Positions 5,812-24,940 of a DNA stretch of 64,000 nt are shown in pieces (within the stretch, counting starts at the first letter, position 1; every line of letters begins with the position of its first letter). Made by a program: the position numbers and the translations under genes. Below the pieces are notes generated by a model. That model saw only the letters and a program-made list of their open reading frames with translations, searched no databases and was not told the DNA's origin. This DNA comes from an uncultured bacterium (GTDB taxonomy: Bacteria; UBP14; UBA6098), in assembly GCA_964606695.1 (NCBI GenBank), contig CAZSHG010000004.1, forward strand, positions 97,725 to 161,724. The letters run 5' to 3'.

Positions 5812-5815
5812 ACTC

Positions 5816-6367: not shown

Positions 6368-6634
6368 ATGGAACCGAAAATGAGACGTGAACAATTATTA
6401 CAGGCCCTTGAAGAACTTGCCGCAAAAATCGGCATCGAAGTCCGTTATGAAAAAATGGGCACGATTTTGGGTGGGCTTTGTCGTATCCACGACGGTAAAG
6501 TTATACTCATCAATAAAAACCTTTCCGACGCGTCCAGGGTCGAATTGCTTTCCTCCGAACTTGCGCTGGAAAGCGAAAAACTCGAAAAGGTCTATGTTCT
6601 TCCTGAGGTTCGCGAAATACTTGGTCTGTCGTGA
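6368..6634 (+). CDS. Hypothetical small protein (88 aa), translationally coupled to comEC.
   Basis: ORF with no recognisable motif. Its stop overlaps the comEC start (ATGA at 6631-6634). Confidence 0.4.
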   Translation: MEPKMRREQLLQALEELAAKIGIEVRYEKMGTILGGLCRIHDGKVILINKNLSDASRVELLSSELALESEKLEKVYVLPEVREILGLS

Positions 6635-9087
6635 AACCCGCCAGGACTCCCCCAACACCTTTACTTATGGCCTTTGGTCTAATAGCGGTCGGTATCGTCT
6701 TAGCCAGGATGATATTTCCCCAGAGCGAAAAGGGCATTATCGTATTCGGTGCGATATCCATTCTCGCCTGCGTTGTAGCAATTCTGACGGCTTCATTCAG
6801 TAAAGGGAAAATCAAGCTGGCCGCCTTTATTACCATCGTTATTGGATTAATTTCGTTCGGCGGTTATCGTTACGAGCTGTGGAGCCGAATTCCAGAAAGC
6901 GACGTCAGTCGTCTCAACGGACGTGAAGTGCGGTTATACGGCGCAATCACAAGCGACATCGAACTTAGCGAAGATCGTCAGCGGTTCGAATTATCGGCCG
7001 ATTCGGTCGAAATCCAGGATACTATGGTCATCGCCATTGGTAAAATCCGCATTTATCTTTATCAGGCAAGACCACTCGCTTACGGCGATTATATAGCTAT
7101 TAACGTGAAACTCCAGGAACCCTGGCGCGCGACAAACCCTTATGCCTACGATTTCAAAAAATCCCTGGAATCCAAAGGAATCCGTTCGATTGCTTTCGTC
7201 TATCGGGATAGGAATGTTAGACTTCTCGATAGTTCCGGCGGAAGCTTCTTTTTATCGGACATCGTCAATCCCCTGCGCCGGCACATTGAAAAGACAATAG
7301 ACGCCAATCTTCACGGCGACTCGGCGGCACTGTTGAAAGGCCTTATGCTGGGGCTTGGACGAAAGCTCCCCGACGATGTCCGCGACGCTTTCGCAGATTC
7401 TGGAACGGTGCACATCCTTGCTGTCAGCGGTTTGCACGTCGGCATTATAGCCGGATTGGCGTGGTTACTTTTCGCTTCGATAATCCGTATTCCACGGGGA
7501 ATAAGCGCGGTTATGACAATCGTGTTGCTCGCGGTTTTCGCCGGGCTGGTTGGAGGAAGGCCATCAGTTCTACGTGCGGCTTTCATGTTCTCGATTATTA
7601 TCGTCGGTGCTTCGCTAAATAAGCCCCCCAATTTACTTAATTCGATAGGTGCGGCAGGCGCGGTTCTGCTCGCAATAAAGCCAATCTGGATAGGCGACAT
7701 AGGCTTTCAGCTTAGTTTCGGCGCTACGCTCGGAATAGCCTATTTATTGCCAAAATTCCAATCCTGGCTACCGGAAAAATATCAGAAAGCGAATTTCGCA
7801 GGAACATGGATCATTTCCCCATTCCTGGTTTCGCTTTCTGCAACCCTTGGCACCGCGCCGCTTGTGGCCTGGCATTTCCACCGTTTCCAGCTAATTGGCC
7901 CCATAGCCAACCTTGTCGTCCTACCGCCGCTTGGAATAATTATTGGTTACGGAATCCTGGCTGTGATATTCCAACCGATTTTGCCTTTTTTAACGAAACT
8001 TTTCCTCGCCGTAGATTGGTTATTCTTGAGGATTTACCTGCTTAATGCCGTGAAGTTTTTCGCGTCGTTACCATTTGCTTATTTGACATTTCCCCACCCC
8101 TCTTTTACCTGGGTGGTTTTCTATTATGTAGTCCTCGTCGCAAGCCCGGTATTGCTCCAGAAACTCAACCGAAAATATCTCGCGGCGATAGGTTACATAG
8201 CAATTACCGCGTTAGCCCTGTTGTTGGGCAGGATAACTTCGGTCGAGAGACTTGACGAGGACATTCGCGTAACATTTTTCGACATAGGCCAGGGCGATTG
8301 TGCATTGATTGAATTCGACGACGGGCGTGAGATGCTTATCGACGGCGGTCAACCAGGTAACGTGGATTTCAGTGTTGTGCCATATCTACAAGCACGGGGA
8401 TTAAAACGAATCGACGCAGTTGTGATGACCCACTCCGATGCCGACCACGTCGGCGGGTTACGCGACCTGCAAAACGATTTCGAATACGGCACGATCTATG
8501 TCCCATACGCAACTTACACCAGCAACCTGCATCGCCGTTTCATCGAATACGCCGATTCGCTCGGCACACTTGTCGAACTGCTTTCCCTCAGTGAACATAT
8601 CCACGATTTCCCGGAATTGGAAGTCCTCTGGCCGGATACGTTATCCGTATCGCCGGAAGGATCCCTTCTGGTGAATGCCAACGAGGGATCTATCGTTCTC
8701 ATGTTGAAATCGGGCGAAGCGGAAGTTTTCTTTGCAGGAGATATCGGTATCCCCACCGAACGAAGTATAGTCGAATTGGCGGACATCGAATGCGATGTCG
8801 TGAAAGTCCCTCATCACGGAAGTAAATACTCCACCGCCGAAGAGATGGTCAAAGAAACAACTCCTCTTCTGGCGGTAATCTCAGTCGGAGCTAAAAACCG
8901 TTTCGGTCATCCGGCGGATAGGGTTATCGAAGACTACAGAAAAGCCGGCAGTGAAGTCCTCCGCACCGATAAGCATGGCGCGGTGATTCTATCAATCGAT
9001 AAGGGTAAGATTAAATACCGAAGCTATCTTGGCAAATCCGGAGTCTTTAACGCAACCGACCAACCTCATCAAACAAACGTCGAATAA
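6631..9087 (+). CDS. comEC: DNA internalization-related competence protein ComEC/Rec2 (polytopic membrane channel plus C-terminal metallo-beta-lactamase domain).
   Basis: 818 aa with multiple TM helices. The competence-domain region (HILAVSGLHVGIIAG) and C-terminal MBL motif (VVMTHSDADHVGG ... VKVPHHGS) match the canonical ComEC architecture. Confidence 0.85.
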   Translation: MKPARTPPTPLLMAFGLIAVGIVLARMIFPQSEKGIIVFGAISILACVVAILTASFSKGKIKLAAFITIVIGLISFGGYRYELWSRIPESDVSRLNGREVRLYGAITSDIELSEDRQRFELSADSVEIQDTMVIAIGKIRIYLYQARPLAYGDYIAINVKLQEPWRATNPYAYDFKKSLESKGIRSIAFVYRDRNVRLLDSSGGSFFLSDIVNPLRRHIEKTIDANLHGDSAALLKGLMLGLGRKLPDDVRDAFADSGTVHILAVSGLHVGIIAGLAWLLFASIIRIPRGISAVMTIVLLAVFAGLVGGRPSVLRAAFMFSIIIVGASLNKPPNLLNSIGAAGAVLLAIKPIWIGDIGFQLSFGATLGIAYLLPKFQSWLPEKYQKANFAGTWIISPFLVSLSATLGTAPLVAWHFHRFQLIGPIANLVVLPPLGIIIGYGILAVIFQPILPFLTKLFLAVDWLFLRIYLLNAVKFFASLPFAYLTFPHPSFTWVVFYYVVLVASPVLLQKLNRKYLAAIGYIAITALALLLGRITSVERLDEDIRVTFFDIGQGDCALIEFDDGREMLIDGGQPGNVDFSVVPYLQARGLKRIDAVVMTHSDADHVGGLRDLQNDFEYGTIYVPYATYTSNLHRRFIEYADSLGTLVELLSLSEHIHDFPELEVLWPDTLSVSPEGSLLVNANEGSIVLMLKSGEAEVFFAGDIGIPTERSIVELADIECDVVKVPHHGSKYSTAEEMVKETTPLLAVISVGAKNRFGHPADRVIEDYRKAGSEVLRTDKHGAVILSIDKGKIKYRSYLGKSGVFNATDQPHQTNVE

Positions 9088-9144
9088 ACCAAATTTAAAA
9101 TTATTTCACTTCTAAATTGACAGGGAGAGGTATTTCATATAATA

Positions 9145-10431
9145 TTGAATATTATGAAAGAAAATCACCGCAAAACGGTTTTAGACAATGGGATTACTGT
9201 CCTATCGCTTCCTATGGCAGGCAGAGCCGGAGTTGCAGTCGGCGTCTGGCTGGATGTCGGTAGCAGAGACGATCCGCCCGGACGCGAGGGCATGGCTCAT
9301 CTCGTCGAACATCTTATGTTTAAAGGCACCGAGAAACGGACATCACTGCAAATAGCTCGAGAACTCGAATATGTCGGTGGGAGCGGCGATGCCTACACCT
9401 CCCGTGAAGAAACCTGCTACTACGCCTATGTCCCCTCGCGTGAACTTCCTAAAGCACTGGATATTATCGGCGATATGATAGCTCACTCACGCATCGACGA
9501 GGTCTCTTTCCAGCGAGAAAAAAGCATCGTCCTGGAGGAGATGGCGGAAGTTCAGGATTCGCCTCAGGAGATAGCGCAGGAGTATTTCCCCTCGATTCTG
9601 TTCGGCAATCATCCGCTTGGCCAATCGATATTGGGAAGCCCAGAAGGTGTGAAAGCAACTAAGCGGAACGATGTAATCGACTTCATGAACGCCAATTATA
9701 CCGCCGAAAAAACGTTAGTCGCGGCAGTTGGGAAAATCGAACATGGTGAACTCTGCGAACTCGCCGATAAATACATAAATCTTCCAAAGGGCATTTCAAC
9801 AACCTCTCAGCCCGCACCACCCCTAAAGCCGATAGGGGAAATCGGATTATTGAAAAAACCAGCCGCGCAGGTAAATATTATAATCGGCGGGAGACTTTTC
9901 CCTTTCAAAGACGAACTAAGATATCCCTTCGCAATACTCAATAAAATACTCGGGCAAGGGGCGTCGAGTTTGCTGTTTCAGAGGGTTCGCGAAGAAGCCG
10001 GTATCGGTTACGACGTCCATTCTTTCGACGAATATTTCAAAGATTCCGGCATGTGGGGCGTTTTTGGAGCTTTCGAATCGAAATCGGTTATGAGTTTCCT
10101 CAATATTCTCAGATCGACTATGGATGAGATTAATGACGGTCTTATCGATGAACAAATTCTGCGCGATACTATTAACGGGCTTTCCGGCAACGCGGTTCTC
10201 CAGAAAGATTCCATAAGCTCGATGCTGAACAGGCTCGCGGAAAACGAACTCCAATTAGGCCGATTTATCCCGGTAGAAGAGAGTATCAACAGGCTGAGAG
10301 AAGTAACGCCTGAACAGATTCGTGAACTCGCATCCGATTTATTCAACCCCATATCACTGGGCGGAATTGCAGTAGGGACTATACATCCAAAGGACTCGCC
10401 GAATTGGTTGAAATGGAAGGATATGGCATGA
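9145..10431 (+). CDS. M16 family (pitrilysin/insulinase-like) zinc peptidase.
   Basis: Inverted zinc-binding motif HLVEHLMFKGT (HxxEH). Length of 428 aa and overall M16 N- and C-domain layout. Confidence 0.85.
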   Translation: MNIMKENHRKTVLDNGITVLSLPMAGRAGVAVGVWLDVGSRDDPPGREGMAHLVEHLMFKGTEKRTSLQIARELEYVGGSGDAYTSREETCYYAYVPSRELPKALDIIGDMIAHSRIDEVSFQREKSIVLEEMAEVQDSPQEIAQEYFPSILFGNHPLGQSILGSPEGVKATKRNDVIDFMNANYTAEKTLVAAVGKIEHGELCELADKYINLPKGISTTSQPAPPLKPIGEIGLLKKPAAQVNIIIGGRLFPFKDELRYPFAILNKILGQGASSLLFQRVREEAGIGYDVHSFDEYFKDSGMWGVFGAFESKSVMSFLNILRSTMDEINDGLIDEQILRDTINGLSGNAVLQKDSISSMLNRLAENELQLGRFIPVEESINRLREVTPEQIRELASDLFNPISLGGIAVGTIHPKDSPNWLKWKDMA

Positions 10432-13705: not shown

Positions 13706-14740
13706 ATGAACTGGAAACTTCTGGAAGAGCTTTGTAATACCCCCGGAGTCCCCGGGCACGAGCGCAAGGTGGCCGAGATTTTCAAGCGCGAAGCCGAGGG
13801 GATCGCGGTGGAATCGTGGTTCGATAACGTCGGCAACTGCATAGTGCACGTCGGCGGGGAAGGCCCGGTAGTGGCGCTGGACGCCCACACCGACGAGGTC
13901 GGTTTCATCGTCTCGCACGTCGATGACGAGGGCTTCATTCGCGTGGTCCCGCTGGGGGGCATCGACCCGCGAGTTTTTTACGCGCAACGCGTCGTCGTCC
14001 ACGGCACCGAGGATTTGCCGGGCGTTGTAGGCGCGGTTCCGCCGCATCTTCTGAACAAAAACGCCGACCGCGACAAGGCAGTGCCCATCGAGGACGCCTT
14101 CATCGACCTGGGCCTCCCCGGGGATAAGGTCAAACAGAAAGTCCGCATAGGGGACGTGGTCACCTTCGACAGCAAGTTCGAGGATTTAGGGGACGTGGTC
14201 ATCGGGAAGGCGTTCGACGACCGGCTGGGCCTGTTCGTCATCCTCGAGGCTATTAAAAAAGCTAAGAAAATCGCCTGCGACCTCTATCTGGTGGCGACGG
14301 TTCAGGAGGAACGCGGCCTCCGGGGCGCGACCTGCGCGGCTTTCACCGTCAACCCGGACATCGCCATCGCACTGGAGGGGACTTTTGCGAACGACCTGCC
14401 GGGAGTGCCTTCGCACAAGCGGCTGGCCACGCAGAACAAGGGCGCAGAACTCCGCATCACCGACCGCGCCGTCATAGCCGACCGCGCGCTGGTGGACTAC
14501 CTGGCGGAAATCGCCGACGGCGGCGGCATCGACCACCAGTTCGTGGTGAAAAACGCCGGCACCACCAACGCCACCGCCATCGAGCTTGCCTCCGGAGGCA
14601 CCCGCGTGGCGGCAATCTCCGCGCCGGTGCGATATATTCACAGCCCCATCGGCATGGTCAACAAGCACGACATCGAATGCCAGATAGACCTCCTGGCGAA
14701 ATACCTGGAAGTCGCCGACAAAACCCCGCCGCGGCGGTAG
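13706..14740 (+). CDS. M42 family (FrvX/CelM-like) aminopeptidase. The gene is distinctly GC-rich compared with its neighbours.
   Basis: 344 aa with M42 architecture (GHERKVAEIF..., ALDAHTDEVGF, GKAFDDRLG, EERGLRGA). Its last about 70 bp and terminator are duplicated downstream. Confidence 0.8.
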   Translation: MNWKLLEELCNTPGVPGHERKVAEIFKREAEGIAVESWFDNVGNCIVHVGGEGPVVALDAHTDEVGFIVSHVDDEGFIRVVPLGGIDPRVFYAQRVVVHGTEDLPGVVGAVPPHLLNKNADRDKAVPIEDAFIDLGLPGDKVKQKVRIGDVVTFDSKFEDLGDVVIGKAFDDRLGLFVILEAIKKAKKIACDLYLVATVQEERGLRGATCAAFTVNPDIAIALEGTFANDLPGVPSHKRLATQNKGAELRITDRAVIADRALVDYLAEIADGGGIDHQFVVKNAGTTNATAIELASGGTRVAAISAPVRYIHSPIGMVNKHDIECQIDLLAKYLEVADKTPPRR

Positions 14741-14798
14741 TTACGCTACCCCTAAAAATTTCCCCCGGCTCCCGCGCTCCGCGTGGGGGCCTTTTTTA
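14668..14798. repeat. Direct repeat copy 1 (131 bp, identical to 15711..15841). It covers the 3' end of the M42 gene, its stop and a rho-independent terminator.
   Basis: Base-by-base reading shows an identical 131-bp string (cgacatcgaatgccagatagacc ... gcgtgggggcctttttta) at both positions. Confidence 0.85.
14762..14797 (+). terminator. Rho-independent terminator of the M42 gene (GC-rich stem CCCCC...GGGGG followed by T6).
   Basis: cccccggctcccgcgctccgcgtgggggcc followed by tttttt. The same structure recurs at 15805..15840. Confidence 0.6.
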
Positions 14799-14993
14799 TG
14801 CTCGTATTCTTCTTTTCGAGATAGTAATCTGTTTACTGGAGGAGCGAAATGCACATAACAACGGGGAAAAGGGGCGATCACAAGGAATCGCCCCTACGGT
14901 TCGCACGAAGCGTCTTATCCGGTCGCGAATCCACCGGAGGTGGTTGAGCACAAACGGCTGCGGCCCTGCCGCCGGCTGGCTGGAAATTGAATC

Positions 14994-15021
14994 TTGACAG
15001 AGCTGAGAACAACGCTAAATT
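14994..15021 (+). promoter_or_regulatory. Candidate promoter for the MNT/HepT cassette (perfect TTGACA -35, 16-nt spacer, TAAATT -10).
   Basis: TTGACA at 14994-14999 and TAAATT at 15016-15021, with the ATG at 15031. Confidence 0.3.
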
Positions 15022-15030
15022 ATTATTAAG

Positions 15031-15327
15031 ATGAAAAATAAGGAACAAATAAAATCTCTGATCTCGGCAAACCTGGCGACAATCAAAAAGCGGTTTGGCG
15101 TTTCCTCCATCGGCGTGTTCGGATCTTATGTTCGCGGCGAACAGACCGAAAACAGCGACCTCGATATAATTGTCGTTTTCGAGCCGGGACACAACGACCT
15201 GTTCAATTATTCCCGCCTGAAGACCTATCTTGAGGAATTATTCGGTCTGGAGATCGATCTGGTAATTCAAAACGGCATTAAGCAAGAACTTCGGGATAAC
15301 ATACTCGGAGAGGTTCAATATGCCTGA
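15031..15327 (+). CDS. mnt: Nucleotidyltransferase-domain protein (MNT-type), the antitoxin partner of HepT in type VII toxin-antitoxin systems.
   Basis: 98 aa with the minimal nucleotidyltransferase motif GVFGSYVRGEQTENSDLDIIV (GS...D.D). It overlaps the downstream HEPN gene by 8 nt. Confidence 0.85.
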   Translation: MKNKEQIKSLISANLATIKKRFGVSSIGVFGSYVRGEQTENSDLDIIVVFEPGHNDLFNYSRLKTYLEELFGLEIDLVIQNGIKQELRDNILGEVQYA

Positions 15328-15673
15328 CAGCAGGAGAACCGACCTCCATTTTATTGAAGACATCCTGGTTGCGATTGAGAAGATCGAGCGCTATGTTGGG
15401 GATATGGATTTCGAGAGTTTCGACGCTAACGATATGGCCAAAGACGCGATTATAAGGAATTTTGAGGTGATCGGGGAAGCGGCGCGGAATATTTCGGATG
15501 AGATGCGCGCCAGATATCCTTTTGCCGAGTGGAAAGAGATGACCTCCTTTCGGAATGTTCTTATTCACGGCTATTTCACCCTGAGCACCGAGACGATCTG
15601 GGATACGGTAAAAAAGAACCTCGAACCGCTGAAAGCCCACCTGTTAGAGATTAAAAAGGCCGAAACAAGATGA
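15320..15673 (+). CDS. hepT: HEPN-domain toxin (HepT/DUF86 family) with the R-x4-HxY motif.
   Basis: 117 aa with FRNVLIHGY (Rx4-6HxY HEPN RNase motif). Paired with the MNT gene in the canonical antitoxin-toxin order. Confidence 0.85.
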   Translation: MPDSRRTDLHFIEDILVAIEKIERYVGDMDFESFDANDMAKDAIIRNFEVIGEAARNISDEMRARYPFAEWKEMTSFRNVLIHGYFTLSTETIWDTVKKNLEPLKAHLLEIKKAETR

Positions 15674-15680
15674 CCATATA

Positions 15681-15783
15681 ACCCGGCGACGCCCAATTCG
15701 CCGACGGCGGCGACATCGAATGCCAGATAGACCTCCTGGCGAAATACCTGGAAGTCGCCGACAAAACCCCGCCGCGGCGGTAG
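15681..15783 (+). pseudogene. Degraded duplicate of the 3' end of the M42 peptidase gene, in frame through the TAG at 15781-15783. It probably carries an internal deletion relative to the intact copy.
   Basis: The stretch ttcgccgacggcggcgacatcgaatgccag fuses two sequences that lie about 150 bp apart in the intact M42 gene (atcgccgacggcggcggcatcgac at about 14507 and cacgacatcgaatgccag at about 14665). The identical last 24 codons and stop follow. Confidence 0.5.
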
Positions 15784-15841
15784 TTACGCTACCCCTAAAA
15801 ATTTCCCCCGGCTCCCGCGCTCCGCGTGGGGGCCTTTTTTA
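15711..15841. repeat. Direct repeat copy 2 (131 bp, identical to 14668..14798), including the duplicated terminator.
   Basis: Identical string on direct reading. It is immediately followed by an RBS and ATGCACATCACAA, the start of the next gene. Confidence 0.85.
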
Positions 15842-15891
15842 ATTCTTGCACTCAATACCACTATGCTGTATTTTGTTTTCAGGAGGCCATC

Positions 15892-16788
15892 ATGCACATC
15901 ACAATCGAACAAAACAAAGTCATCGTCAACCTCGACGAAAACGAGTTCCCAGCCTTCGAGGCGATGTTTCGGAACCTCGAACTGGACAAATTCGTCCAAT
16001 GCGATTTTCGGGATTTCGATTTCGGGGATTACGGATCGAAGCGAAAGCTCCTGCCTATGCACCTATGCCGAACAATCGGCGAGGCGAACCTTGGAAGCGA
16101 CCCCTTCGCAACCGTGTCGCTCTATCCCTTCTGGAAACACGGTTTTGCTTTTGGGGCGGATGATAACCTGATAATCGCGCCGGGAGTGGAGGACCCACAC
16201 AAGAAAGCCGTTGCCGCGGACGAGTTCGGCATGGGCTTCTGTTGCTGGGCGATGGAGGAGCTGTTCAACTGCGACACCTGGGCGGACTGTTCCGCGCTGA
16301 TAAAGATGGGCGCGGTGTTTCCGGTGGGAACGAAACGCCCGGATTTCGTATGCACCCTCCCCGACGGCTCCCTCGGCGTGTTCGAGGCGAAGGGCACGAC
16401 CGGCACGGCGGGCAACCTCGCGCTAAGTCAGGGCAAAATCCAGACTCAGGGCATAACCGCAGACGACCCAATCTCCCTGCGCGTGGTTGTAGGATGCGCT
16501 CTCGGCGGCGACACCACGCGAATAGTTCTCCTCGACCCGCCCCCCTCGACTCCCCTCGGGGACCGGCCCTCGAACGGAGAACGGGACGAAAGGTCGTTGA
16601 GCGGAGCCGAAACGAACGGTGTGAAAACCAACCTGACCGCCGACCTCGTAAAACGCGCGGCGAAAGGGATGCGCACCCAGACCCAGACGCTGCAAACCGT
16701 ATTCCGCTCCCCCACCGCCGAACTCAACCTCAAACGCAAGGATTACAAAGACGACAAAGGCCACGGCTGGCTGGAGATTAATCGATAA
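15892..16788 (+). CDS. Hypothetical protein with a PD-(D/E)xK nuclease-like core and a GC-rich, Pro/Thr/Arg-rich C-terminal tail. The likely start is MHITIEQ at 15892; the ORF track extends it to 15826.
   Basis: The motif arrangement AADEFGMGF ... RPDFVCTLPDGSLGVFEAKGTTG fits E ... PD ... ExK of the restriction-endonuclease fold. This is a pattern-level inference with no family assignment. The 3' third of the gene (about 16400-16790) is very GC-rich. Confidence 0.4.
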   Translation: MHITIEQNKVIVNLDENEFPAFEAMFRNLELDKFVQCDFRDFDFGDYGSKRKLLPMHLCRTIGEANLGSDPFATVSLYPFWKHGFAFGADDNLIIAPGVEDPHKKAVAADEFGMGFCCWAMEELFNCDTWADCSALIKMGAVFPVGTKRPDFVCTLPDGSLGVFEAKGTTGTAGNLALSQGKIQTQGITADDPISLRVVVGCALGGDTTRIVLLDPPPSTPLGDRPSNGERDERSLSGAETNGVKTNLTADLVKRAAKGMRTQTQTLQTVFRSPTAELNLKRKDYKDDKGHGWLEINR

Positions 16789-16848
16789 ACAATGGTATGT
16801 TAATAGCTTCGATGAGAATGGATTAAATATATAAACTTCATAAACAGC

Positions 16849-16877
16849 TTGACATTTGTTTTTAAGGAAAGTAACTT
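16849..16877 (+). promoter_or_regulatory. Candidate promoter for the methyltransferase gene (TTGACA, 17-nt spacer, TAACTT).
   Basis: TTGACA at 16849-16854 and TAACTT at 16872-16877 in the AT-rich spacer between the GC-rich upstream gene and the AT-rich methyltransferase gene. Confidence 0.25.
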
Positions 16878-16886
16878 TGAATTAAG

Positions 16887-19766
16887 TTGGTTCCAAAAGG
16901 GGTTTTCCAAATGAGCAGTCCACATCAATGGCTTTTAGATTTCCAGGAAACTGGAAATACGACTATTGAAGGGATTGTCTCGGTCGATAACTATTCCCTA
17001 AACGACTTGCCTCCCGATTCTATCCCTATAATGGAAAAAGCCGAGGAATACGGAGCAAAAGCCGTATTCTTTGAAAAGGAGCGGGAAGGCAGACCTCCAA
17101 TTGCACAAGCCTTCATCTTTGTTTGCGACGAACAGGCCGATAAAGAAAGATTTGCTAAACTGCACCAGCGGATGTGGAGCTGGGGCGGCGTTCCTCTGGT
17201 CTATAGAGTTACACCGGGCAAGGTAGAGTTGTTCCGGTGTGCCCATAAGGCGGATTTCGAAAAAAACGGTGAAATCAGTTATAAAGCCTACAAGACTTTA
17301 AAAACTGCTGCAAAGATTGCGAATGATCCGTGGTGGGATTCTGACCGCCTTTATTATGGAAGTATATGGGACGATCCGACAGCTTGCAAAAAACTCCTAT
17401 CAGGTAGCCGGGCGGCGCAGAATACTTTGATTAAAGAGGTAAAAGCCCTCAACACTAAATTAGAGGAAAAAAGCCACTTAGATAGGCCACTTCAGCGCAA
17501 ACTACTTATTTTGTCTTTGATGATCGCATACCTCGAAGAACGGAAGGTCCTTACCGAAGATTATTTCTATAAGTTTAAATCCGGGGCAAACGAATTTTTT
17601 GAAATACTTAAAGATGGCGAAGCGCTGGTAAATCTCCTTGAAAATCTCGAAGAGAGATTCAACGGCCAGATTTTCACTTTATCGCCGGAGATGAAAACGG
17701 AGCTACGGGAAAATCCTGACCTTAGCGAATTCGTGAGGCTTATCGAAGGAATAGAAGACACAAGCGGACAATTAAATCTTTGGAAAAGGTACTCGTTTGC
17801 CGATTTACCAGTCGAATTAATAAGCCACGTTTACCAGCTTTTTGTCGAAGATAAAGACACTGCCGTTTATACCCCGCCTTTCCTCGTGAAATTAATGTTA
17901 GGAGAAGTTCTCACCAAAGAACGGCTGGATAGACTAATAAAAGAGGAAGAGATTATTCTGGACCCGGCTTGCGGCTCTGGCGTCTTTTTAGTCGAAGCTT
18001 ATAAACGCCTTGTGCTACATTGGAGGGCCGAAAAAAATTGGGAAGAGAAACCAGGTGAAGATGACTTAAAAGAACTTTTAACGAAATACATCTATGGCAT
18101 TGATAAAGATAAAGGGGCGACGGAACTAACCGCTTTCAGCCTTTGCCTTGCGCTTTGCGATGCACTTAAACCGGACGAGATTAGTGATAGTAGAAAGATA
18201 TTCCCTCCACTTCTGGGCAAAAACGTTTATGCCATGTGTTTCTTCGAAGCGAGAGAACAGAACAAGATAGAAAAGGACGTCGGGATAATTGTCGGAAATC
18301 CGCCCTTTAAATCTGAATTAATGACTGATGGGGCTAAGAGCGCCTATGAACGATACAACAAGGAATATGCAGATGAAAGAGGCAAATTACCCGACAAGCA
18401 AATAGCCTATCTCTTTCTCCATAAATCGATGGAGATGCTAACTCCGGGCGGTGTTCTCTCGATGCTCCAACAATACAGCTTCTTGTATAACGAACAATCG
18501 ATAAGTTTCCGGAAGAAGTTTTTCGAGAAATGGGATGTTCGAGAAATCCTCGACATGGTTTCTATAACCGGCCTTTTTAAAAAAAGTAAAAAGAACACAA
18601 AGGTTGTTGTTATCGTGGCTGAGGCGAAAGAACCATCTCCAGAGCGAAAGATTCTGCACGCTACTTTCCGACGTAGCGGTAGAACTCATGCCGAACAAGG
18701 TTTCAATATTGATTACTACGATTTACATTGGTTAAAACAGGAAACTGCCGTTGAAAGCCCCTGGATTTGGCGTTCGGATTTGTTTGGAGGTGGTCGAGTT
18801 TTTAATCTAATTGAGAGATTGAAAGAGTACCGGACTCTAGAACAATATGCAAATGAACAGGATTGGGACCATGGGGAAGGCTTCATCAAGGGAGGAAAAG
18901 TAAAAAGAAAACCAGCAAAACATATAACCGGAAGCTTATTAATTAGACCTTATCAATTAGAAGAAGAAGAGATTAACATTGAGACTTTACAAAAGGTAGA
19001 AGAAACGAATTTTAGGTCGGCTTATTCTAAGAAGCGATTTACTGCTCCTATGGTTCTTGTTCGAGAAAACGAAAACCTTGCGGTTAAGTACTTTTCATCT
19101 GGTTATTATACTTATGAAGATAAAATCGTAGGCTTCTGTGTCGGAGATGGGAAAGATGATAATTTATCTTTGTTATTTAATTGGTTTAAAAGTAATCGTG
19201 AAACACTTATAGCCTTGGTTTGTGCAGGAGGAACTACCAACTTTACTCAAAGAGATTCGCAATTAAGCTTATCTGATATACGAAGCTTACCGTCCCCTGA
19301 CATCGACTTGGATTTATCGTTTACCGAGAAAATCGTCGTATCTGATATTGTCGAATATTACCGTGAGTTAATTAGAAAGGGCCAAAATTCGGACGCGATG
19401 ACAAAACCGGGCATAGATGCCCTCCCTGATTTCAATGGAATCTATACCGGTCAGATAAACGCGATCTATAAAGAGAAAAAACTAAAGGCACTCGAACCTC
19501 AAACATGGGCGGGGTTCCTATGCCAGCCCTATGTTTTTGGCGATGGGGAAGTCGATTGGTCGGGTTCGGACGGACTGAAAGACAAATTAGAAAAACTAAT
19601 GAAGGAAAAACGGCCTTATGGCCTGAATATTTATCGAATAGCACGGATTTATGACGGCCCATTCATTTTTCTCTTAAAACCAAACGTTTTGCGTTATTGG
19701 CTGAGGTCTATTGCCCTACGCGATGCCGACGAAACCTTGTCCGATTTATGGAAGCAGGGCTTCTGA
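16887..19766 (+). CDS. Large (959 aa) gamma-class N6-adenine DNA methyltransferase fusion protein. It has an about 330-aa N-terminal domain, a methyltransferase core and an about 340-aa C-terminal, presumably target-recognition, region. The size class matches Type IIG/IIL (Eco57I/MmeI-like) enzymes.
   Basis: Motif X AVYTPPFLV preceded by LISHVYQLF, motif I ILDPACGSGVFLVEAY, motif IV IIVGNPPF. The size and domain order resemble single-chain RM enzymes, but no convincing nuclease motif could be confirmed by eye in the N-terminus. About 41% GC versus about 60% in flanking genes. Confidence 0.8.
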   Translation: MVPKGVFQMSSPHQWLLDFQETGNTTIEGIVSVDNYSLNDLPPDSIPIMEKAEEYGAKAVFFEKEREGRPPIAQAFIFVCDEQADKERFAKLHQRMWSWGGVPLVYRVTPGKVELFRCAHKADFEKNGEISYKAYKTLKTAAKIANDPWWDSDRLYYGSIWDDPTACKKLLSGSRAAQNTLIKEVKALNTKLEEKSHLDRPLQRKLLILSLMIAYLEERKVLTEDYFYKFKSGANEFFEILKDGEALVNLLENLEERFNGQIFTLSPEMKTELRENPDLSEFVRLIEGIEDTSGQLNLWKRYSFADLPVELISHVYQLFVEDKDTAVYTPPFLVKLMLGEVLTKERLDRLIKEEEIILDPACGSGVFLVEAYKRLVLHWRAEKNWEEKPGEDDLKELLTKYIYGIDKDKGATELTAFSLCLALCDALKPDEISDSRKIFPPLLGKNVYAMCFFEAREQNKIEKDVGIIVGNPPFKSELMTDGAKSAYERYNKEYADERGKLPDKQIAYLFLHKSMEMLTPGGVLSMLQQYSFLYNEQSISFRKKFFEKWDVREILDMVSITGLFKKSKKNTKVVVIVAEAKEPSPERKILHATFRRSGRTHAEQGFNIDYYDLHWLKQETAVESPWIWRSDLFGGGRVFNLIERLKEYRTLEQYANEQDWDHGEGFIKGGKVKRKPAKHITGSLLIRPYQLEEEEINIETLQKVEETNFRSAYSKKRFTAPMVLVRENENLAVKYFSSGYYTYEDKIVGFCVGDGKDDNLSLLFNWFKSNRETLIALVCAGGTTNFTQRDSQLSLSDIRSLPSPDIDLDLSFTEKIVVSDIVEYYRELIRKGQNSDAMTKPGIDALPDFNGIYTGQINAIYKEKKLKALEPQTWAGFLCQPYVFGDGEVDWSGSDGLKDKLEKLMKEKRPYGLNIYRIARIYDGPFIFLLKPNVLRYWLRSIALRDADETLSDLWKQGF

Positions 19767-20497
19767 TGTGCAGGAGAATGCTGTCTGATATTGAGCCCAT
19801 TGCACATTCGGGCAGAATAGGGGAAGAGGTCCTTGCACGGAATACAATTCGATTCGAGCTTATCGAATTTATTAGAACGGAATTACCAAAATGGCGCGAT
19901 GACCCGGAAAGGCCTATGGAACATGCCGAGACAGTTTTAACCAGCCAGCTTTGTAGCCATATGAATAGCGTATCAAGAATATCAGAAGCATGGCATAGGA
20001 TTCAATTTGGAACAGAAATCCGAGATGAGAATAATAAAAGAGGGACAATCGACTTTGCACCAAAACCATGTTCTGTGGTTTTGATAATTGAAGGTCGCAA
20101 ATATACTCATTTTGATATGATTTTCCCAATCGAGTGTAAACGCTTACCTACTCCGGCCGGTACAAAAAGAGACGAAAAAGAATATGTAATTGTGGATAGT
20201 GGGTCTACGGGTGGGATCCAACGATTCAAGTTCGGTTTTCACGCATCGGATCATGATTTTGGTGCAATGATAGCCTATGTTCAGGATGCCATTGGTTTTA
20301 GCCGATGGCTGACCAGAATAAATGGATGGGTTCACGACCTCGGGCAAGCTACTGATTCTGTTTGGTGCGACGAAGATCGTTTGGAGCTTTTAGAAGAAGA
20401 TACGGATAACCGTGTTTGTTCATTGAAATCGAATCATCATCGCCAAAACGGCCTCGACGACATCGAGCTCCGACATTTATGGATTGATATGAATTGA
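19767..20497 (+). CDS. Hypothetical protein (about 243 aa) with a possible PD-(D/E)xK-like nuclease motif. The likely start is the ATG at 19767 (MCRRML; TGATG overlap with the methyltransferase stop); the ORF track starts at 19697.
   Basis: GTIDFAPKPCSVVLIIEGRKYTHFDMIFPIECKRLP contains D ... E.K spacing compatible with a restriction-endonuclease-like core (weak). About 43% GC and tightly coupled to the methyltransferase gene. Confidence 0.3.
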
Positions 20498-20696
20498 AGT
20501 AATTCGCGGGGAGCGAAATTCCCCTTGACAAATGACAGTTCGTATTTTAGCTTTTGTGTAGCGGTTTGGTTATGTGGATGGTCTTTGATAATGTTAAGTG
20601 TTCTCGGGGGGTGGAAAATCACCTTTTTTGGGATTTTGGGAGCGAAACTGGGGGTTTTTACGTAAGTGGTTGATTTATAACGTGTAGGAGCGGAAA

Positions 20697-20923
20697 ACAC
20701 GGGCGCTTTTTGATGGACACGCGCACTTTTCGTTAAAACACGAGCATATTCAAGAAAACATGGGCGCTTTCTCCAAATACATTAGCATTTTCTCCAAATA
20801 CACGGGCACTCTACCAAAATACATTGGCACTTTCGGGAAATACACGCGCACATTTCAGAAAACACGAGCACTTTGCTCAAATACATTGGCACTTTCGCCA
20901 AAAACATTAACGCTTTTGTAACC
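20697..20923. repeat. Tandem array of 11 imperfect repeats of 20-21 bp (consensus about ACAYNRGCRCTTTCNNNAAAT), ending 11 bp before the start codon at 20935.
   Basis: Units read directly: acacgggcgctttttgatgg / acacgcgcacttttcgttaaa / acacgagcatattcaagaaa / acatgggcgctttctccaaat / acattagcattttctccaaat / acacgggcactctaccaaaat / acattggcactttcgggaaat / acacgcgcacatttcagaaa / acacgagcactttgctcaaat / acattggcactttcgccaaaa / acattaacgcttttgtaacc. The period equals two helical turns, with an A-tract in each unit. Confidence 0.8.
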
Positions 20924-20934
20924 GGGGAGAGATC

Positions 20935-21936
20935 ATGGCCAAGAAAACAAGAGAACCAGCAAGGTTAGGGCACGCGGACTATTGCAAGTGGTTCGAGCAG
21001 ATGATCGGATTCAAGGAAGATCGTATTGCCGACGGAACCTGGCCGACTCATCTAAACGCAAATTTCCAGGCACTGTTCAATGAATTATGGGACGCCTGGG
21101 ACACTTACGATCGTTTGAAAAATGAGCTTAAAGGGACGACATACAAGGCGTATGACGATGCCTCGAAGCCGGTTTATGATCGGTTAGTCTCGCTTCGAGA
21201 GCTAATTCCGACGCTTTTCGACGGCGACGACGCGGTTCTCGGCGAATTCGGCATGGCTCGAAAAGTGCCTCGCGACAAAGAGGATTTGTTCACGATGGCG
21301 AGCGGGTGCCTGGAGCATTGGGACGACATCACTGACCCGGACGTCCCGCCCGAATATGCGCCCGTTGCGGATATGTTCGCGGAGTTTCAGGATGAATACG
21401 ACACGTTTCAGGCCGCTTACACGGCGTATATCGCCAAAACGCGAGATGTCGAGGAGGCTCAGAATTTATTGCTCGAGAAACGCGAGCTTTGCCATCACAA
21501 GGAGCGTCTAATTTTCCACTGGTTCAAGGGATTACATAAGGACGGCGAGGCTGAATGGTGGACCGCGACGCTCTGGGGCAGGACTGGTGGCGGTTCTGGC
21601 GGCGGGGAGGAGCCGGGGCCGAGTAGCTGGGAGGATGCGCCGACGAATTTCGTCTTGAAAGAGGGTGTTGCGGGGTCGGCGTTGCTTCAGGCGGATGTCC
21701 ATGCCGATGCCGACGGATGCGCGGTGTTCATGGCCGAGACGGAACTGGGCGTGGCGGAACCGCCTATGCGTCCGGGCGAGCCTCTCGAGCCGCTGATTAC
21801 GCCAATCGAACCCGGAAAGTTTTCCTATAATTTGAATATTACGCCGAACCGTCGGGTGTGGTTTTGGATCTGCCATGTCAAGGACGGCGCATGGGGCGCG
21901 ATTGCGGGGCCGGAGTGGATCGAGATCGAGAAATAA
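20935..21936 (+). CDS. Hypothetical cytoplasmic protein (333 aa). Acidic helical N-terminal domain, Gly-rich linker (GRTGGGSGGGEEPGPSS) and C-terminal domain of about 110 aa.
   Basis: Clear RBS (GGGGAGAG) 4 nt upstream of the ATG. No recognisable catalytic motif. Preceded by the 21-bp array and followed by a perfect palindrome. Confidence 0.5.
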   Translation: MAKKTREPARLGHADYCKWFEQMIGFKEDRIADGTWPTHLNANFQALFNELWDAWDTYDRLKNELKGTTYKAYDDASKPVYDRLVSLRELIPTLFDGDDAVLGEFGMARKVPRDKEDLFTMASGCLEHWDDITDPDVPPEYAPVADMFAEFQDEYDTFQAAYTAYIAKTRDVEEAQNLLLEKRELCHHKERLIFHWFKGLHKDGEAEWWTATLWGRTGGGSGGGEEPGPSSWEDAPTNFVLKEGVAGSALLQADVHADADGCAVFMAETELGVAEPPMRPGEPLEPLITPIEPGKFSYNLNITPNRRVWFWICHVKDGAWGAIAGPEWIEIEK

Positions 21937-21960
21937 TATAGAATTTATAATGTAGAATGG

Positions 21961-21990
21961 CGTAGGGGCAATTCATGAATTGCCCCTACG
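21961..21990. repeat. 30-bp perfect palindrome cgtaggggcaattcatgaattgcccctacg, 25 bp after the stop of the orphan gene.
   Basis: Self-complementary on direct reading. It could be a stem-loop terminator, although no T-run follows, or a dimeric protein-binding site. Confidence 0.8.
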
Positions 21991-22067
21991 ATTAGTTTAT
22001 AGGCGGCTCGAGGTGGTCGTCTTTTTTTATCCCTCGTCATTGCAATGTTATATTTTAACATTAAAAG

Positions 22068-22105
22068 ATCGAGCGTCTCGCTCGATGTGCGGCGAGACGC
22101 CGCAC
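22068..22105. repeat. Two adjacent GC-rich hairpins (atcgagcg-tct-cgctcgat and gtgcggcg-aga-cgccgcac).
   Basis: Inverted repeats read directly from the sequence, each with a 3-nt loop. Possible terminator or insulator between the accessory stretch and the TonB-receptor operon. Confidence 0.6.
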
Positions 22106-22254
22106 CTATTAATTTCATAAACCTATTATATTAGAACCCTCCGGCCTTCGGACATCTCGCTTGTTGAGGGAGGCATAAGATTGGATTCGCGATCGGGTCG
22201 GGAATGACAGATGTCAGGAAGTTTTTTAGCTATCCTGAGGAACGCTCCGATTAA

Positions 22255-22590
22255 GTGGCGATGGCAGAAATATTTCCTTGCCCTCAAGTTCTTTGTGCCT
22301 ATATTGAATTCATGAGTCGAAGACGAGAAATATTATCCATTCTGCTTGCGTTCTATCTATTGTTCATAGTCGTTTTTGCGGCTGTTCACACCCACGAAGA
22401 CGGCAGGCACCATTCGGAATGTCAGCTATGCCAGATAGCTGTGTTATCTATCCTTCCGATATCTACATTCATTCTTACGACCAATTTCAGGCGTTGCTAT
22501 TCGACTTTCAATTTGGAAAACCAACTTGTCGAAGACCATCGCCCTACATTTGTCTCCAACCGTTCGCCACCGAAGCCTTTCGATAAATAA
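22255..22590 (+). CDS. Small membrane protein with a His/Cys-rich motif (HTHEDGRHHSECQLCQ), upstream of a TonB-dependent receptor.
   Basis: 111 aa with one predicted TM helix. The metal-ligand-like motif is HxH...HH..CxxC. The arrangement resembles small metal-related accessory proteins often found beside TonB receptors; this is inference. Confidence 0.4.
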   Translation: MAMAEIFPCPQVLCAYIEFMSRRREILSILLAFYLLFIVVFAAVHTHEDGRHHSECQLCQIAVLSILPISTFILTTNFRRCYSTFNLENQLVEDHRPTFVSNRSPPKPFDK

Positions 22591-22623
22591 GCTGTCTTAA
22601 ACACAATTATCGAAAGGAAAAAC

Positions 22624-24828
22624 ATGAGAATACGTATGTTATTATGTGTGTTCGCCATTGTTTGTTCTGTCGTCAGCGGCTTCGATGGAAGCGTTTTTGA
22701 CGGGCAGAGCGGCGAACCGTTGGCCGGTGCCAATATACTGGTAATCGGCACAAATATCGGGACTACAACTAATATCGACGGCAATTTTACCCTCGATATC
22801 GAATTGCCGGCGGAGATTTCCGTATCCTTCGTCGGTTACAAAACAAAGGTAGTCGATGTTACGGAAACCGACATAAAAATCGAGGTTCACCCGACCGCCC
22901 TCGGAGGTTCCGAGATAGTTGTAACCTCGACGCGTGGTGCGGCGGAATCGTCGAAATCGCCTCAGCCGACGTCCAGCATAAATTCAAGGCAGATGGCGAT
23001 GCGAAATATTATCACACTCGACGACGCTCTACGGGGCAGTGCCGGTCTGACATTGAACACAACCGGTTCAGGGAGTATTCGCCCCACGATTCGAGGGCTT
23101 TACGATTCCCACGTCCTGACGCTCATGGACGGTATCCCTCTTATGGACCTTCGCCCCGGCGGCGATCATGTCCTGCTTATTGAACCAAGCCAGCTTGGGC
23201 GAATCGAGATAGTTCGAGGCCCGGGATCGGTTCTTTACGGCTCGGACGCTATCGGCGGGGTCGTTAATTTCATCAGCAAGGAATTTGAACCCGTGAATGA
23301 CGGCACGGGGATTTCGGGCGAATTACGCGCGGGATATTCCTCCCTCGGCGACGGCTACAATGCCGACGTGTCGATAGAGAAGCCTCTGGAAAAGGCGAAT
23401 ATCGGCGCGGGGTTCGGTTACAGATCCAACGATGATATATCGGATCCGAACGGCGAGATTCCGAGTAGCGATTACTCCGGCTACCACGCCGATTTATCCG
23501 CAAGCGGCAGTTTCGGATCGAATAGACTATCTTTCGGTGCGCATTATATATCCGCTGACGTCGGAGTGCCGATTAGCCCGAGTATCGAGAGTTCGCATTT
23601 CGAAGGGGAATCGCAGTTGCTAAGCCTCGTCAAATACGAGGGCGTGAATATATCGGCCTTCAAAACCCTACAGGCGAATTTTTCCTGGCAGAAGCACCAT
23701 CGGCATTTCCATAAGATATGGCCTTCGGGCGATCCGAACATGGACGCACAGGTTTGGGTCGATGTCGATGGCTTGACCTTCCAGCTCCTGCCCATGCTTG
23801 ACCTGAAGGGCTTCGTCATTCAGCCGGGAGTAGATGTTACTTATCAATTCGCCTCTTCCGACAGAGTCGTGCAAATCACGGCAAGCGGCGACACGATCCT
23901 CGACAGTCCTGTTATCCCGAATTCGGATAGACTACTCGGCGGATTTTTCGTGCAGGCGAGCAAACCGGTCGGGGCTTTCGACTTCGCGGCGGGGGCAAGA
24001 TACGACGTCGTAACTTCGCATGCCGATGCCCGTGCGCCGGAGGACCCTTTCCAATCAGATGAGTATGATGTTACCGACGCGGATTTTTCCGGAAATCTTT
24101 CATTGCGATACGAACACGAAGATGGGATATTTGCGATAGCTTCTGTGGGAAGGGCTTTTCGCAGTCCGACACTGCTCGAACGATATTTTCGGGGGCCGCA
24201 TACGACCGGCGTCGATCAGGGCAACCCGGAATTGAAATCGGAAACCTCGTTTAATTTCGACCTCGGACTCGGATGGAGCTCGGATATTGTTAATACGAGG
24301 CTCTCGGGTTTCCGTAATCAGGTCGATAATTATATTTTCAAGGAGAATTCGGGCGATACCACCTCGGATGGTGCGGAGATATGGGAATGGAAAAACGAGG
24401 GCAAAGTCGAACTTATCGGTTTCGAAGCTGAGGTAAAAATCTCGCCCTCTGACTGGTTCGGCGCGTCGGGAAATCTGTCCTATGTCGAGGGCAAAGACGA
24501 GAATGACAATTATATGCCGAACATCCCGCCCTTAAACGGCAATCTTGATTTGCGCTTTGAGAAATGGGGTTTCGCTACGGATTTGTTCTGGCTGTTCGCG
24601 GTAAAACAGGATAAGTTAGCGGATAGCGAAACTGCTACAGACGGCTGGCTTACCCATAATATCAGTCTCTCCTACGACCTGTCCAAACACATTCCCATTG
24701 ACGCGGAGATAATTCTAACCGGGAAGAATCTCACGAACGAGGTTTATTACAATCATCTATCCCGAATCAAGGATTACTGGGCCGAAAGCGGAAGAAGTTT
24801 CACGATTTCGTTCGGTATGCAATTCTAA
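22624..24828 (+). CDS. TonB-dependent outer-membrane receptor with an N-terminal carboxypeptidase-regulatory-like domain.
   Basis: Signal peptide. CarboxypepD_reg-like N-terminus (GANILVIGTNIGTTTNIDGNFTL). Plug-region motifs (TLDDALRGSAGL ... IEIVRGPGSVLYGSDAIGGVVNFISK). C-terminal terminal aromatic residue (F). Confidence 0.85.
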   Translation: MRIRMLLCVFAIVCSVVSGFDGSVFDGQSGEPLAGANILVIGTNIGTTTNIDGNFTLDIELPAEISVSFVGYKTKVVDVTETDIKIEVHPTALGGSEIVVTSTRGAAESSKSPQPTSSINSRQMAMRNIITLDDALRGSAGLTLNTTGSGSIRPTIRGLYDSHVLTLMDGIPLMDLRPGGDHVLLIEPSQLGRIEIVRGPGSVLYGSDAIGGVVNFISKEFEPVNDGTGISGELRAGYSSLGDGYNADVSIEKPLEKANIGAGFGYRSNDDISDPNGEIPSSDYSGYHADLSASGSFGSNRLSFGAHYISADVGVPISPSIESSHFEGESQLLSLVKYEGVNISAFKTLQANFSWQKHHRHFHKIWPSGDPNMDAQVWVDVDGLTFQLLPMLDLKGFVIQPGVDVTYQFASSDRVVQITASGDTILDSPVIPNSDRLLGGFFVQASKPVGAFDFAAGARYDVVTSHADARAPEDPFQSDEYDVTDADFSGNLSLRYEHEDGIFAIASVGRAFRSPTLLERYFRGPHTTGVDQGNPELKSETSFNFDLGLGWSSDIVNTRLSGFRNQVDNYIFKENSGDTTSDGAEIWEWKNEGKVELIGFEAEVKISPSDWFGASGNLSYVEGKDENDNYMPNIPPLNGNLDLRFEKWGFATDLFWLFAVKQDKLADSETATDGWLTHNISLSYDLSKHIPIDAEIILTGKNLTNEVYYNHLSRIKDYWAESGRSFTISFGMQF

Positions 24829-24910
24829 ATGTAGAGGATTGTTTCGCACTGCTATTAATAGTCATCGGGAATGACATAAAAGAACCGCGCCCTCAAGGAT
24901 GCGGTTTAGT

Positions 24911-24940
24911 AAGGCCGCCCGAAAAGGCGGCCTTTTCGTT
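24911..24940. terminator. Bidirectional rho-independent terminator between the convergent TonB-receptor and SagB-like genes.
   Basis: aaggccgcc-cgaaaa-ggcggcctt hairpin (9-bp stem) followed by a T-rich stretch, with a second weaker hairpin (aaccgc...gcggtt) just upstream. Confidence 0.6.

Follow-up and report, generated by a model that had tools for sequence, protein, structure and literature searches.

Homology-anchored insertion that leaves displaced orphans behind has been proposed for the orphan and C-terminal displacement arrays of Rhs, contact-dependent inhibition (CDI) and type VI secretion system (T6SS) loci (PMC5361080), and homology-facilitated illegitimate recombination (HFIR) is itself documented (PMC3240628). 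The other described systems closest to the locus reported here are islands at gene 3' ends, integrative mobilizable elements (IMEs) and cis-mobilizable elements (CIMEs) (PMC5704250). We analysed a 64-kb stretch of DNA from an uncultured bacterium (the window), in which a perfect 131-nt direct repeat, made of the 3' end of an M42 aminopeptidase gene and a terminator, brackets an MNT/HepT toxin-antitoxin (TA) pair. The reading that we favour, with about even confidence, is that this repeat is a recombination scar in a hypervariable defence-gene region directly after the M42 stop codon, left when two alleles of an island were fused.

As in the Rhs, CDI and T6SS arrays, an intact conserved gene lies beside a new module, a displaced 3' fragment and an older module follow downstream, no integrase is present and the same type of orphan recurs in related genomes. 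Unlike in those arrays, a housekeeping peptidase gene with a terminator, instead of a toxin gene, serves as the anchor, the modules are the TA pair and a block formed by a gene termed X and a restriction-modification (RM) system, and the pathway is one that we infer. The likeness to 3'-end islands, IMEs and CIMEs lies in identical repeats that contain the end of a gene, in the preservation of that gene, in the cargo held between the repeats and in the lack of an integrase inside. The differences are that the inner and outer flanks of the window repeats are homologous, that the cassette is free of repeats elsewhere, that no recombinase is detectable in the window and that the repeat is partly a terminator of another module, that of X. 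The features of the locus are given below in window coordinates; related contigs carry L numbers.

13706-14740, forward strand: M42 aminopeptidase gene (Peptidase_M42, Pfam PF05343, E = 9e-80).
14668-14798, forward strand: repeat copy 1, comprising the 73-nt M42 3' end and 58 nt with terminator T (hairpin 14767-14791, T-run 14792-14797).
14799-14848, forward strand: intergenic region 1 (IGR1), 50 nt, GGAGG at 14838-14842; homologous to IGR2 but diverged.
14849-14993, forward strand: psiX1, remnant of a second, pseudogenised copy of gene X; start and 3' end match X alleles, middle decayed.
14994-15021, forward strand: sigma-70-like promoter for the TA operon, predicted from its sequence pattern (TTGACA-16-TAAATT).
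15031-15327, forward strand: gene for the MNT (MntA-type) antitoxin, 98 aa (NTP_transf_2, PF01909, E = 9.5e-19).
15320-15673, forward strand: gene for the HepT (HEPN/DUF86) toxin, 117 aa (HepT-like, PF01934, E = 2e-29).
15674-15694, forward strand: g, the 3' flank of the TA cassette, with ACCCGGCGA at 15681-15689 conserved after HepT in L029 and L032.
15695-15710, forward strand: orphan M42 fragment, 15/16 to 14508-14523, joined to copy 2 via a 144-nt deletion.
15711-15841, forward strand: repeat copy 2, orphan M42 3' end plus terminator T.
15842-15891, forward strand: IGR2, 50 nt, GGAGG at 15882-15886; its homologues lie ahead of X in L020 and L029.
15892-16788, forward strand: gene X2, 298 aa, uncharacterised family with a putative PD-(D/E)XK-like core.

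The two copies of the repeat are identical at 131 of 131 positions and start 1043 nt apart, as had been noticed in a first-pass annotation of the sequence. No second direct repeat of at least 40 nt with comparable identity was found anywhere in the 64-kb window, and the 30-nt hairpin core of the repeat occurs there exactly twice, against 0 occurrences expected from 100 shuffles. In each copy the 73 coding nucleotides include the TAG codon of the M42 gene, and the 58 non-coding nucleotides carry an intrinsic terminator, T (14767-14797 in copy 1 and 15810-15840 in copy 2), with an 11-bp G+C-rich stem, a 3-nt loop, a T6 run and a folding energy of -29.2 kcal/mol (z = -3.3). The M42 gene itself is intact: it encodes 344 aa and agrees in length and C-terminus with its relatives (344-aa homologues, 94-71% identity). 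Homologues were collected at 94-66% identity, the best-named ones being from Zixibacteria. Copy 2 is the present terminator downstream of HepT. A third, decayed copy of the core was sought at the far end of the island that contains this locus, and nothing above shuffle level was found there.

Homology continues in register past both ends of the repeat. To the left of copy 2, positions 15695-15710 align with M42 positions 14508-14523 at 15 of 16 positions, or at 16 of 17 (14508-14524) if the C at 15711, common to this match and to the start of the repeat, is included. Nowhere else in the 64 kb is there a match with at most two mismatches, and an equal score was reached by 1 of 1000 shuffles (p ~ 0.001). 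The joining of this fragment to copy 2 implies a deletion of 144 nt, bounded by the near-repeats GGCATCGA and GACATCGA (7/8 microhomology), and the match itself implies that copy 2 formerly began at least 160 nt further upstream. The first-pass annotation had described the sequence left of copy 2 as a decayed fragment fusing two separate parts of the M42 gene, and aligning both copies and the fragment with the intact M42 3' end supported both the repeat and a fusion. The M42 assignment stands for 15695-15710, while 15681-15689 (ACCCGGCGA) is the 3' flank of the TA cassette. An M42 origin of 15681-15694 was rejected because this sequence is kept downstream of HepT in both L029 and L032.

To the right of the repeat, IGR1 and IGR2 both open with ATGCACATNACAA and are identical at 29 of 50 positions (~58%). 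In both, GGAGG is followed in one register by ATGCACAT(A/C)ACAA, in agreement with the ribosome-binding site and start sequence that had been reported behind each copy, and the ATG codons at 14849 and 15892 each lie 51 nt past the repeat end, the starts matching at 12 of 13 positions. The reading frames that they open differ in length, with 32 aa after copy 1 versus 298 aa and a stop after copy 2. The sequence after copy 1 begins with ATGCACATAACAA (14849-14861), which is identical to the X starts of L020 and L029 (13/13) and matches X2 at 12 of 13 positions. It ends with CGGCTGGCTGGAAATT (14973-14988), identical to an orphan X 3' end in L020 (16/16) and matching X2 at 15 of 16. The middle (14862-14972) looked suggestive of X by eye and in MAFFT and was not significant in local alignment. 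Since both the start and the 3' end match X, a second X copy has collapsed here into a pseudogene, psiX1 (14849-14993). The 32-aa open reading frame (ORF), listed earlier as a 33-codon ORF, is present and is the start of psiX1 rather than a gene. The first-pass annotation had placed only a promoter-like element and the overlapping MNT/HepT genes between the copies; the promoter and both genes are there, and the psiX1 remnant, the flank g and the M42 fragment have to be added to them. Its further suggestion that the duplication was once longer is borne out on both sides, by the M42 fragment on the left and by the IGR and X homology on the right. A perfect 9-bp hairpin, AGGGGCGAT-N8-ATCGCCCCT, lies inside psiX1 at 14873-14898. 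The X remnants of L019 (1240-1300) contain hairpins resembling it (GGGNCGnAT...CCCCTAC), and the X gene of L020 has a shorter form.

Related contigs place this sequence within a larger insert. M42 is directly convergent on a set of nitroreductase, PPIase and TPR genes in L021 to L025 (71% aa identity) and in L018 (81%), with gaps of 64 bp and 350 bp, respectively. The same three genes start at 24956 in the window, where an ancestral bidirectional terminator, AAGGCCGCC...GGCGGCCTT at 24911-24936, is common to the M42 site and the nitroreductase gene. Because L018 and L021 to L025 are without the insert, the sequence from 14741 to about 24905 (~10.2 kb) is accessory:

14741-24905, no strand: whole accessory island, from the M42 stop to the ancestral terminator; absent from L018 and L021 to L025.

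Judged by gene order in these contigs, the ancestral empty site is an M42 gene facing a convergent nitroreductase gene. The first-pass annotation had expected an empty site in which M42 is directly followed by the nuclease-fold gene; such an arrangement would be one parental allele and not the ancestral state.

Other relatives carry different sequence at this position. In L016 and L017 (M42 94% aa identity) an SRPBCC gene follows M42, and nucleotide homology to the window stops at the stop codon. In L030, whose M42 belongs to the cluster of at least 90% aa identity, M42 and T are followed by a short X 3' remnant. In L019 and L026 (M42 84%), two X 3' remnants and the same TTGACA-14-GCTAAATT promoter come after M42. 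Relatives thus differ right at the M42 stop, and the position after M42 is a strain-variable hotspot. The arrangement M42-T-X is older than the lineage of the window. A metagenome DNA scan with the conserved M42 3' pattern returned three loci, and none of them is a same-species contig across the site: L026 is the same as L019, L027 begins 10 nt short of the stop, and L028 offers no more than 107 nt downstream. A scan of genome contigs with M42 gave only relatives of 43% identity or less. The break in L027 (NPIE01004314.1), where position 1 lies 10 nt ahead of the M42 stop, is an assembly break at the same hotspot and suggests strain heterogeneity at the hotspot in another population. Downstream of the hotspot in the closest relative, L016, lies a long array of ~59-nt tandem repeats (GCCGGATACGYCGGGTCGTGCGCCGGAYTCCGTAAAACGCWT...; 2043-2490), which was called as a 147-aa minus-strand ORF.

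The modules of the window also occur in other surroundings. In L020, X (69% aa identity) lies after a catalase gene, and nucleotide homology to the window begins at window position 15810, inside T, and runs through IGR2 into X; the T stems of the two differ by one compensatory change, C-G to T-A. As T precedes X after catalase in L020, T is the 5' edge of the X module and not the ancestral terminator of M42. L020 also holds a RelE/MqsA-like TA pair between two X 3' ends (8845-8899 and 9640-9694; 91% identical over 55 nt). The distal one comes from a different X allele, with an 18-nt segment that is common to L019 and L029 and missing in the full L020 gene. L020 supplies an independent second case of a TA pair bracketed by 3'-end repeats of the gene upstream. 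An orphan X 5' fragment of 26 codons (5736-5812; 73% aa identity) lies upstream of the FUR-catalase genes of L020. Ahead of that fragment come a terminator and an IGR-like stretch, together similar to T-IGR, and ~290 nt of low-complexity A-rich DNA.

The TA cassette itself was found in L029 (NPIE01002227.1) and in L032, at 84.7% nt identity to window 14974-15671 and downstream of tRNA-Gly and tRNA-Cys genes. In L029 it is preceded by tRNA-Gly, tRNA-Cys, hairpins, an apparent short X 3' remnant and the promoter, and HepT is followed by ACCCGGCGA, an ORF6N remnant, an IGR, X (55% aa identity), a NotI-like endonuclease and a D12 methylase. L032 is the L029 locus in a strain that is 98.7% identical, with the TA pair present and the X-RM module absent. 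In L032 a 5'-truncated and then a complete ORF6N gene follow the TA pair (8355-9311), so that this contig has a partial ORF6N duplicate, and the ORF6N remnant of L029 (9660-10000) is cut at ...GVAM. The promoter architecture TTGACA-14 nt-GCTAAATT is found ahead of MNT in both contigs as well as behind an X remnant in L019. No direct repeat brackets the cassette in L029 or L032, contrary to the expectation that the TA pair might be flanked by similar repeats elsewhere, which shows that the repeat does not belong to the cassette as such. Module junctions in these related islands repeatedly carry orphan gene fragments. A CQID similarity between the ORF6N remnant of L029 and the M42 tail was considered as a mark of the joint and judged coincidental, since the repeat begins 8 nt further upstream.

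A core identical at 131 of 131 positions beside IGRs identical at 29 of 50 and a decayed psiX1 indicates that a recent event joined two old, different sequences. The two parental alleles and the order of events that we infer are as follows. One population would have held an allele A (M42-T-IGR1-psiX1-promoter-MNT-HepT-g) and an allele B (M42-T-IGR2-X2-type IIG RM), with identical M42 3' ends and terminators T. One homologous exchange in the common stretch and one illegitimate join, of the end of the cassette flank g to M42 at about 14508, would have placed the alleles in tandem. The route may have been HFIR of incoming linear DNA or a Campbell-type insertion of a circularised fragment, which are topologically equivalent. 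Either would leave M42 intact and an orphan M42 3' piece of ~291 bp plus T ahead of X2, and a later slippage deletion of 144 nt between GGCATCGA and GACATCGA would have cut the orphan to the 16-nt fragment and the 131-bp copy. The complete identity of the duplicated stretch implies that donor and recipient were of the same species. Either of the two alleles may have been the resident one.

Several observations favour this fusion of two island alleles. The in-register homology beyond the repeat includes ATG codons at +51 on one side and a unique M42 fragment on the other, and close relatives differ in content exactly at the site after the M42 stop. The T-IGR-X unit exists after another gene, catalase, in L020, and the TA cassette exists without repeats in L029 and L032, of which the former has X-RM and the latter does not. 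Orphan fragments mark junctions in L020 and L032, and window ORFs of at least 150 aa are free of integrase and transposase domains. The order in the window, with an intact M42 followed by psiX1-TA, an orphan M42 fragment with T and then X2-RM, is that of an HFIR-type event, and alternative modules occupy the one site in L016 and L017, L030, L019 and L026, L018, and L021 to L025.

Other points weigh against it. Neither parental allele is among the contigs found: there is no M42-T-IGR2-X2 without the TA pair and no M42-T-IGR1-psiX1-TA without copy 2, and the metagenome scan gave no same-species contig spanning the site. The illegitimate junction has no verifiable microhomology, the donor sequence being unavailable, and only the secondary 144-nt deletion shows it (7/8). 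The TA pair is upstream of X-RM in L029 too, and the TA-X adjacency could be older, although the polymorphism seen in L032 speaks for an independent origin. The same perfect, sharp-edged identity would also result from a site-specific core or from recent gene conversion.

Gene conversion is central to the alternative that survives best, which we nonetheless consider unlikely: an old tandem duplication within the lineage, which took in the stretch from the M42 3' end to the end of X and may or may not have included the TA pair, followed by complementary decay of the two units and by recent conversion over the 131 bp. The remnants indicate that the duplicated unit once extended at least from 14508 to the end of X, with M42 now intact only in unit 1 and X only in unit 2, and direct repeats 1 kb apart can undergo conversion. 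This scheme requires several extra steps, however. The conversion tract must end exactly at the end of the T-run on one side and at the deletion junction on the other, and flanks that are ~58% identical or unalignable are poor substrates for conversion. In addition, psiX1 is nearer to the foreign X alleles of L020 and L029 (13/13 and 16/16) than to X2 (12/13 and 15/16), which points to a xenologous rather than a paralogous origin.

The first-pass annotation had interpreted the locus as a cassette recombined into the 3' end of a protein-coding gene, like an island between attachment (att) sites. As a rival explanation this would be a site-specific, CIME-like integration mobilised in trans by an integrase encoded elsewhere, and we regard it as distinctly unlikely, behind the duplication just described. 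The topology is indeed that of circle integration: a segment of ~1 kb lies between perfect, sharp-edged direct repeats that cover the 3' end of a gene and leave it intact, at a site that is an insertion hotspot in relatives. CIMEs have moreover kept attL and attR while losing their integration genes (PMC5704250). Unrelated flanks would be expected from such an event, whereas the inner and outer flanks here are homologous, through IGR1 and IGR2, the X start in register and the M42 fragment from 14508. The same cassette is repeat-free at a different site in L029 and L032, no third core exists at the far end of the island, and the half of the core that is a terminator is part of the X module, which occurs after other genes in L020. 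A Pfam search of window ORFs of at least 150 aa gave no integrase or transposase domain in the 64 kb, which agrees with the first reading of the sequence. Of the original interpretation, then, the recombination of a ~1-kb segment at the M42 3' end is retained, and the site-specific att footprint is set aside for its homologous flanks and the repeat-free cassette elsewhere.

We think it quite improbable that the repeat is an artefact in which strain variants sharing a 131-bp segment were threaded into one assembly path, the real genomes being single-copy. Such an error is conceivable for an uncultured bacterium whose assembly is probably metagenomic, at a site that varies between strains in relatives and at which L027, a related contig, has its break 10 nt ahead of the M42 stop; a length of 131 bp is also near the typical maximum k-mer sizes used in assembly. 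Yet all four junctions are unique, and the run HepT-g-M42 fragment-core is not in the intact M42 gene and must exist in reads. The overlaps at the junctions are 15 nt or less, which is too short for a chimeric k-mer join. Moreover, the TA segment enters from the core and exits into it, and the alternative, an empty genome plus a 1043-bp circle or tandem, would itself be recombinant.

The TA pair appears to be an intact and ordinary type VII module. The motifs GSX10DXD and RX4HXY define the AMPylation-based type VII HepT/MntA mechanism (PMC7641770); in the window they read GSYVRGEQTENSDLD (residues 31-45 of MNT) and RNVLIHGY (residues 78-85 of HepT). The two genes overlap by 8 nt. MNT also matched PADLOC PDC-S09 and NCBIfam MntA, the latter below its cutoff, and with NCBIfam equivalog scores of 48 and 47 bits against a cutoff of 60 the two proteins are related to the characterised pair at family level rather than as close orthologues. 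In comparison with the L029 orthologues, dN/dS was 0.14 for MNT and 0.06 for HepT, indicating that the pair is under purifying selection. It thus resembles described HepT/MntA systems in its overlapping MNT and HEPN neighbours of about 100 and 117 aa, its two motifs and its purifying selection, and differs from them in falling below the equivalog cutoffs; the proteins are otherwise nothing unusual. By analogy, MNT would AMPylate a tyrosine in the RX4HXY motif of HepT and so silence the HepT RNase. The pair would be transcribed from its own predicted promoter, with termination now at repeat copy 2.

Beyond psiX1, the TA pair and X2, the island carries a type IIG RM enzyme, two unknown ORFs and a TonB-dependent receptor:

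16911-19766, forward strand: type IIG restriction-modification enzyme downstream of X2 (Pfam Eco57I/N6_Mtase; PADLOC REase_MTase_IIG, E = 2e-44).

Homologues of p333, a 333-aa ORF of the window (20935-21936) without family assignment, are also found in L020 and L029, a few kb past X, at 36-38% aa identity. The regions from X to p333 span 15892-21936 in the window, 8001-14419 in L020 and 10001-15267 in L029, and their cargo comprises the type IIG RM enzyme in the window, a NotI/D12 RM system in L029, and RelE/MqsA with an RCC1-repeat protein in L020. One 403-kb contig also holds homologues of both X and p333 (P0131 and P0243). X and p333 may therefore be the brackets of a variable cargo slot. 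Directly upstream of p333 in the window lies a tandem array (20758-20907) of ~7 copies of a 21-nt unit with consensus ACATGGGCACTTTCCCCAAAT (69% matches), which looks like iterons or an operator array. Comparison of p266 and p333 with PDB sequences, PHROGs, PADLOC and NCBIfam returned nothing and gave no sign of a recombinase. X had no match in plasmid, phage and viral-contig collections, and an exact-protein look-up of the M42, X and HepT proteins of the window found nothing on record.

The least probable of the explanations is that T-IGR-X is a portable, integrase-free landing pad, at which X, as a new family of PD-(D/E)XK, Hjc-like nucleases, would cut or resolve junctions at its own locus and repair would stack the cargo: X does have a predicted nuclease-like core, borders variable defence cargo on its 5' side in three genomes, with a p333 homologue downstream in all three, and leaves fragments at junctions in the window, L019, L020, L029 and L030, but neither an activity nor a target site of X is evidenced, X was not found in the plasmid, phage and viral collections searched, and X as a conserved gene supplying homology for ordinary recombination explains the pattern equally.

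Two further genes of the window lie outside the island. A giant ORF (29607-45413, reverse strand) encodes 5268 aa; its counterpart in L021 has 5751 aa and is rich in Big_1 and Invasin_D3 repeats, and its synteny with the M42 region is conserved. A ComEC/Rec2-type competence gene (6631-9087; Competence, DUF4131, Lactamase_B) lies ~5 kb upstream of the hotspot, and its proximity is compatible with acquisition of modules by natural transformation.

For annotation, the locus carries a warning that a perfect direct repeat containing a gene 3' end is insufficient evidence of an att site. The mechanism is ordinary and the hotspot is the interesting part; the locus shows at base level how a defence hotspot of an uncultured lineage grows with no integrase at hand. 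It appears that modules are stacked beside an intact housekeeping gene through homologous anchors and illegitimate joins, and that orphan tails are left behind. X represents an uncharacterised nuclease-like family that forms the 5' edge of variable TA and RM cargo in the three genomes with readable surroundings, and this recurrent position is what is most worth following up. Should X drive the capture after all, it would be part of a previously undescribed cassette-capture system in Zixibacteria-like bacteria, and the M42, X and ORF6N fragments would be its repair scars.

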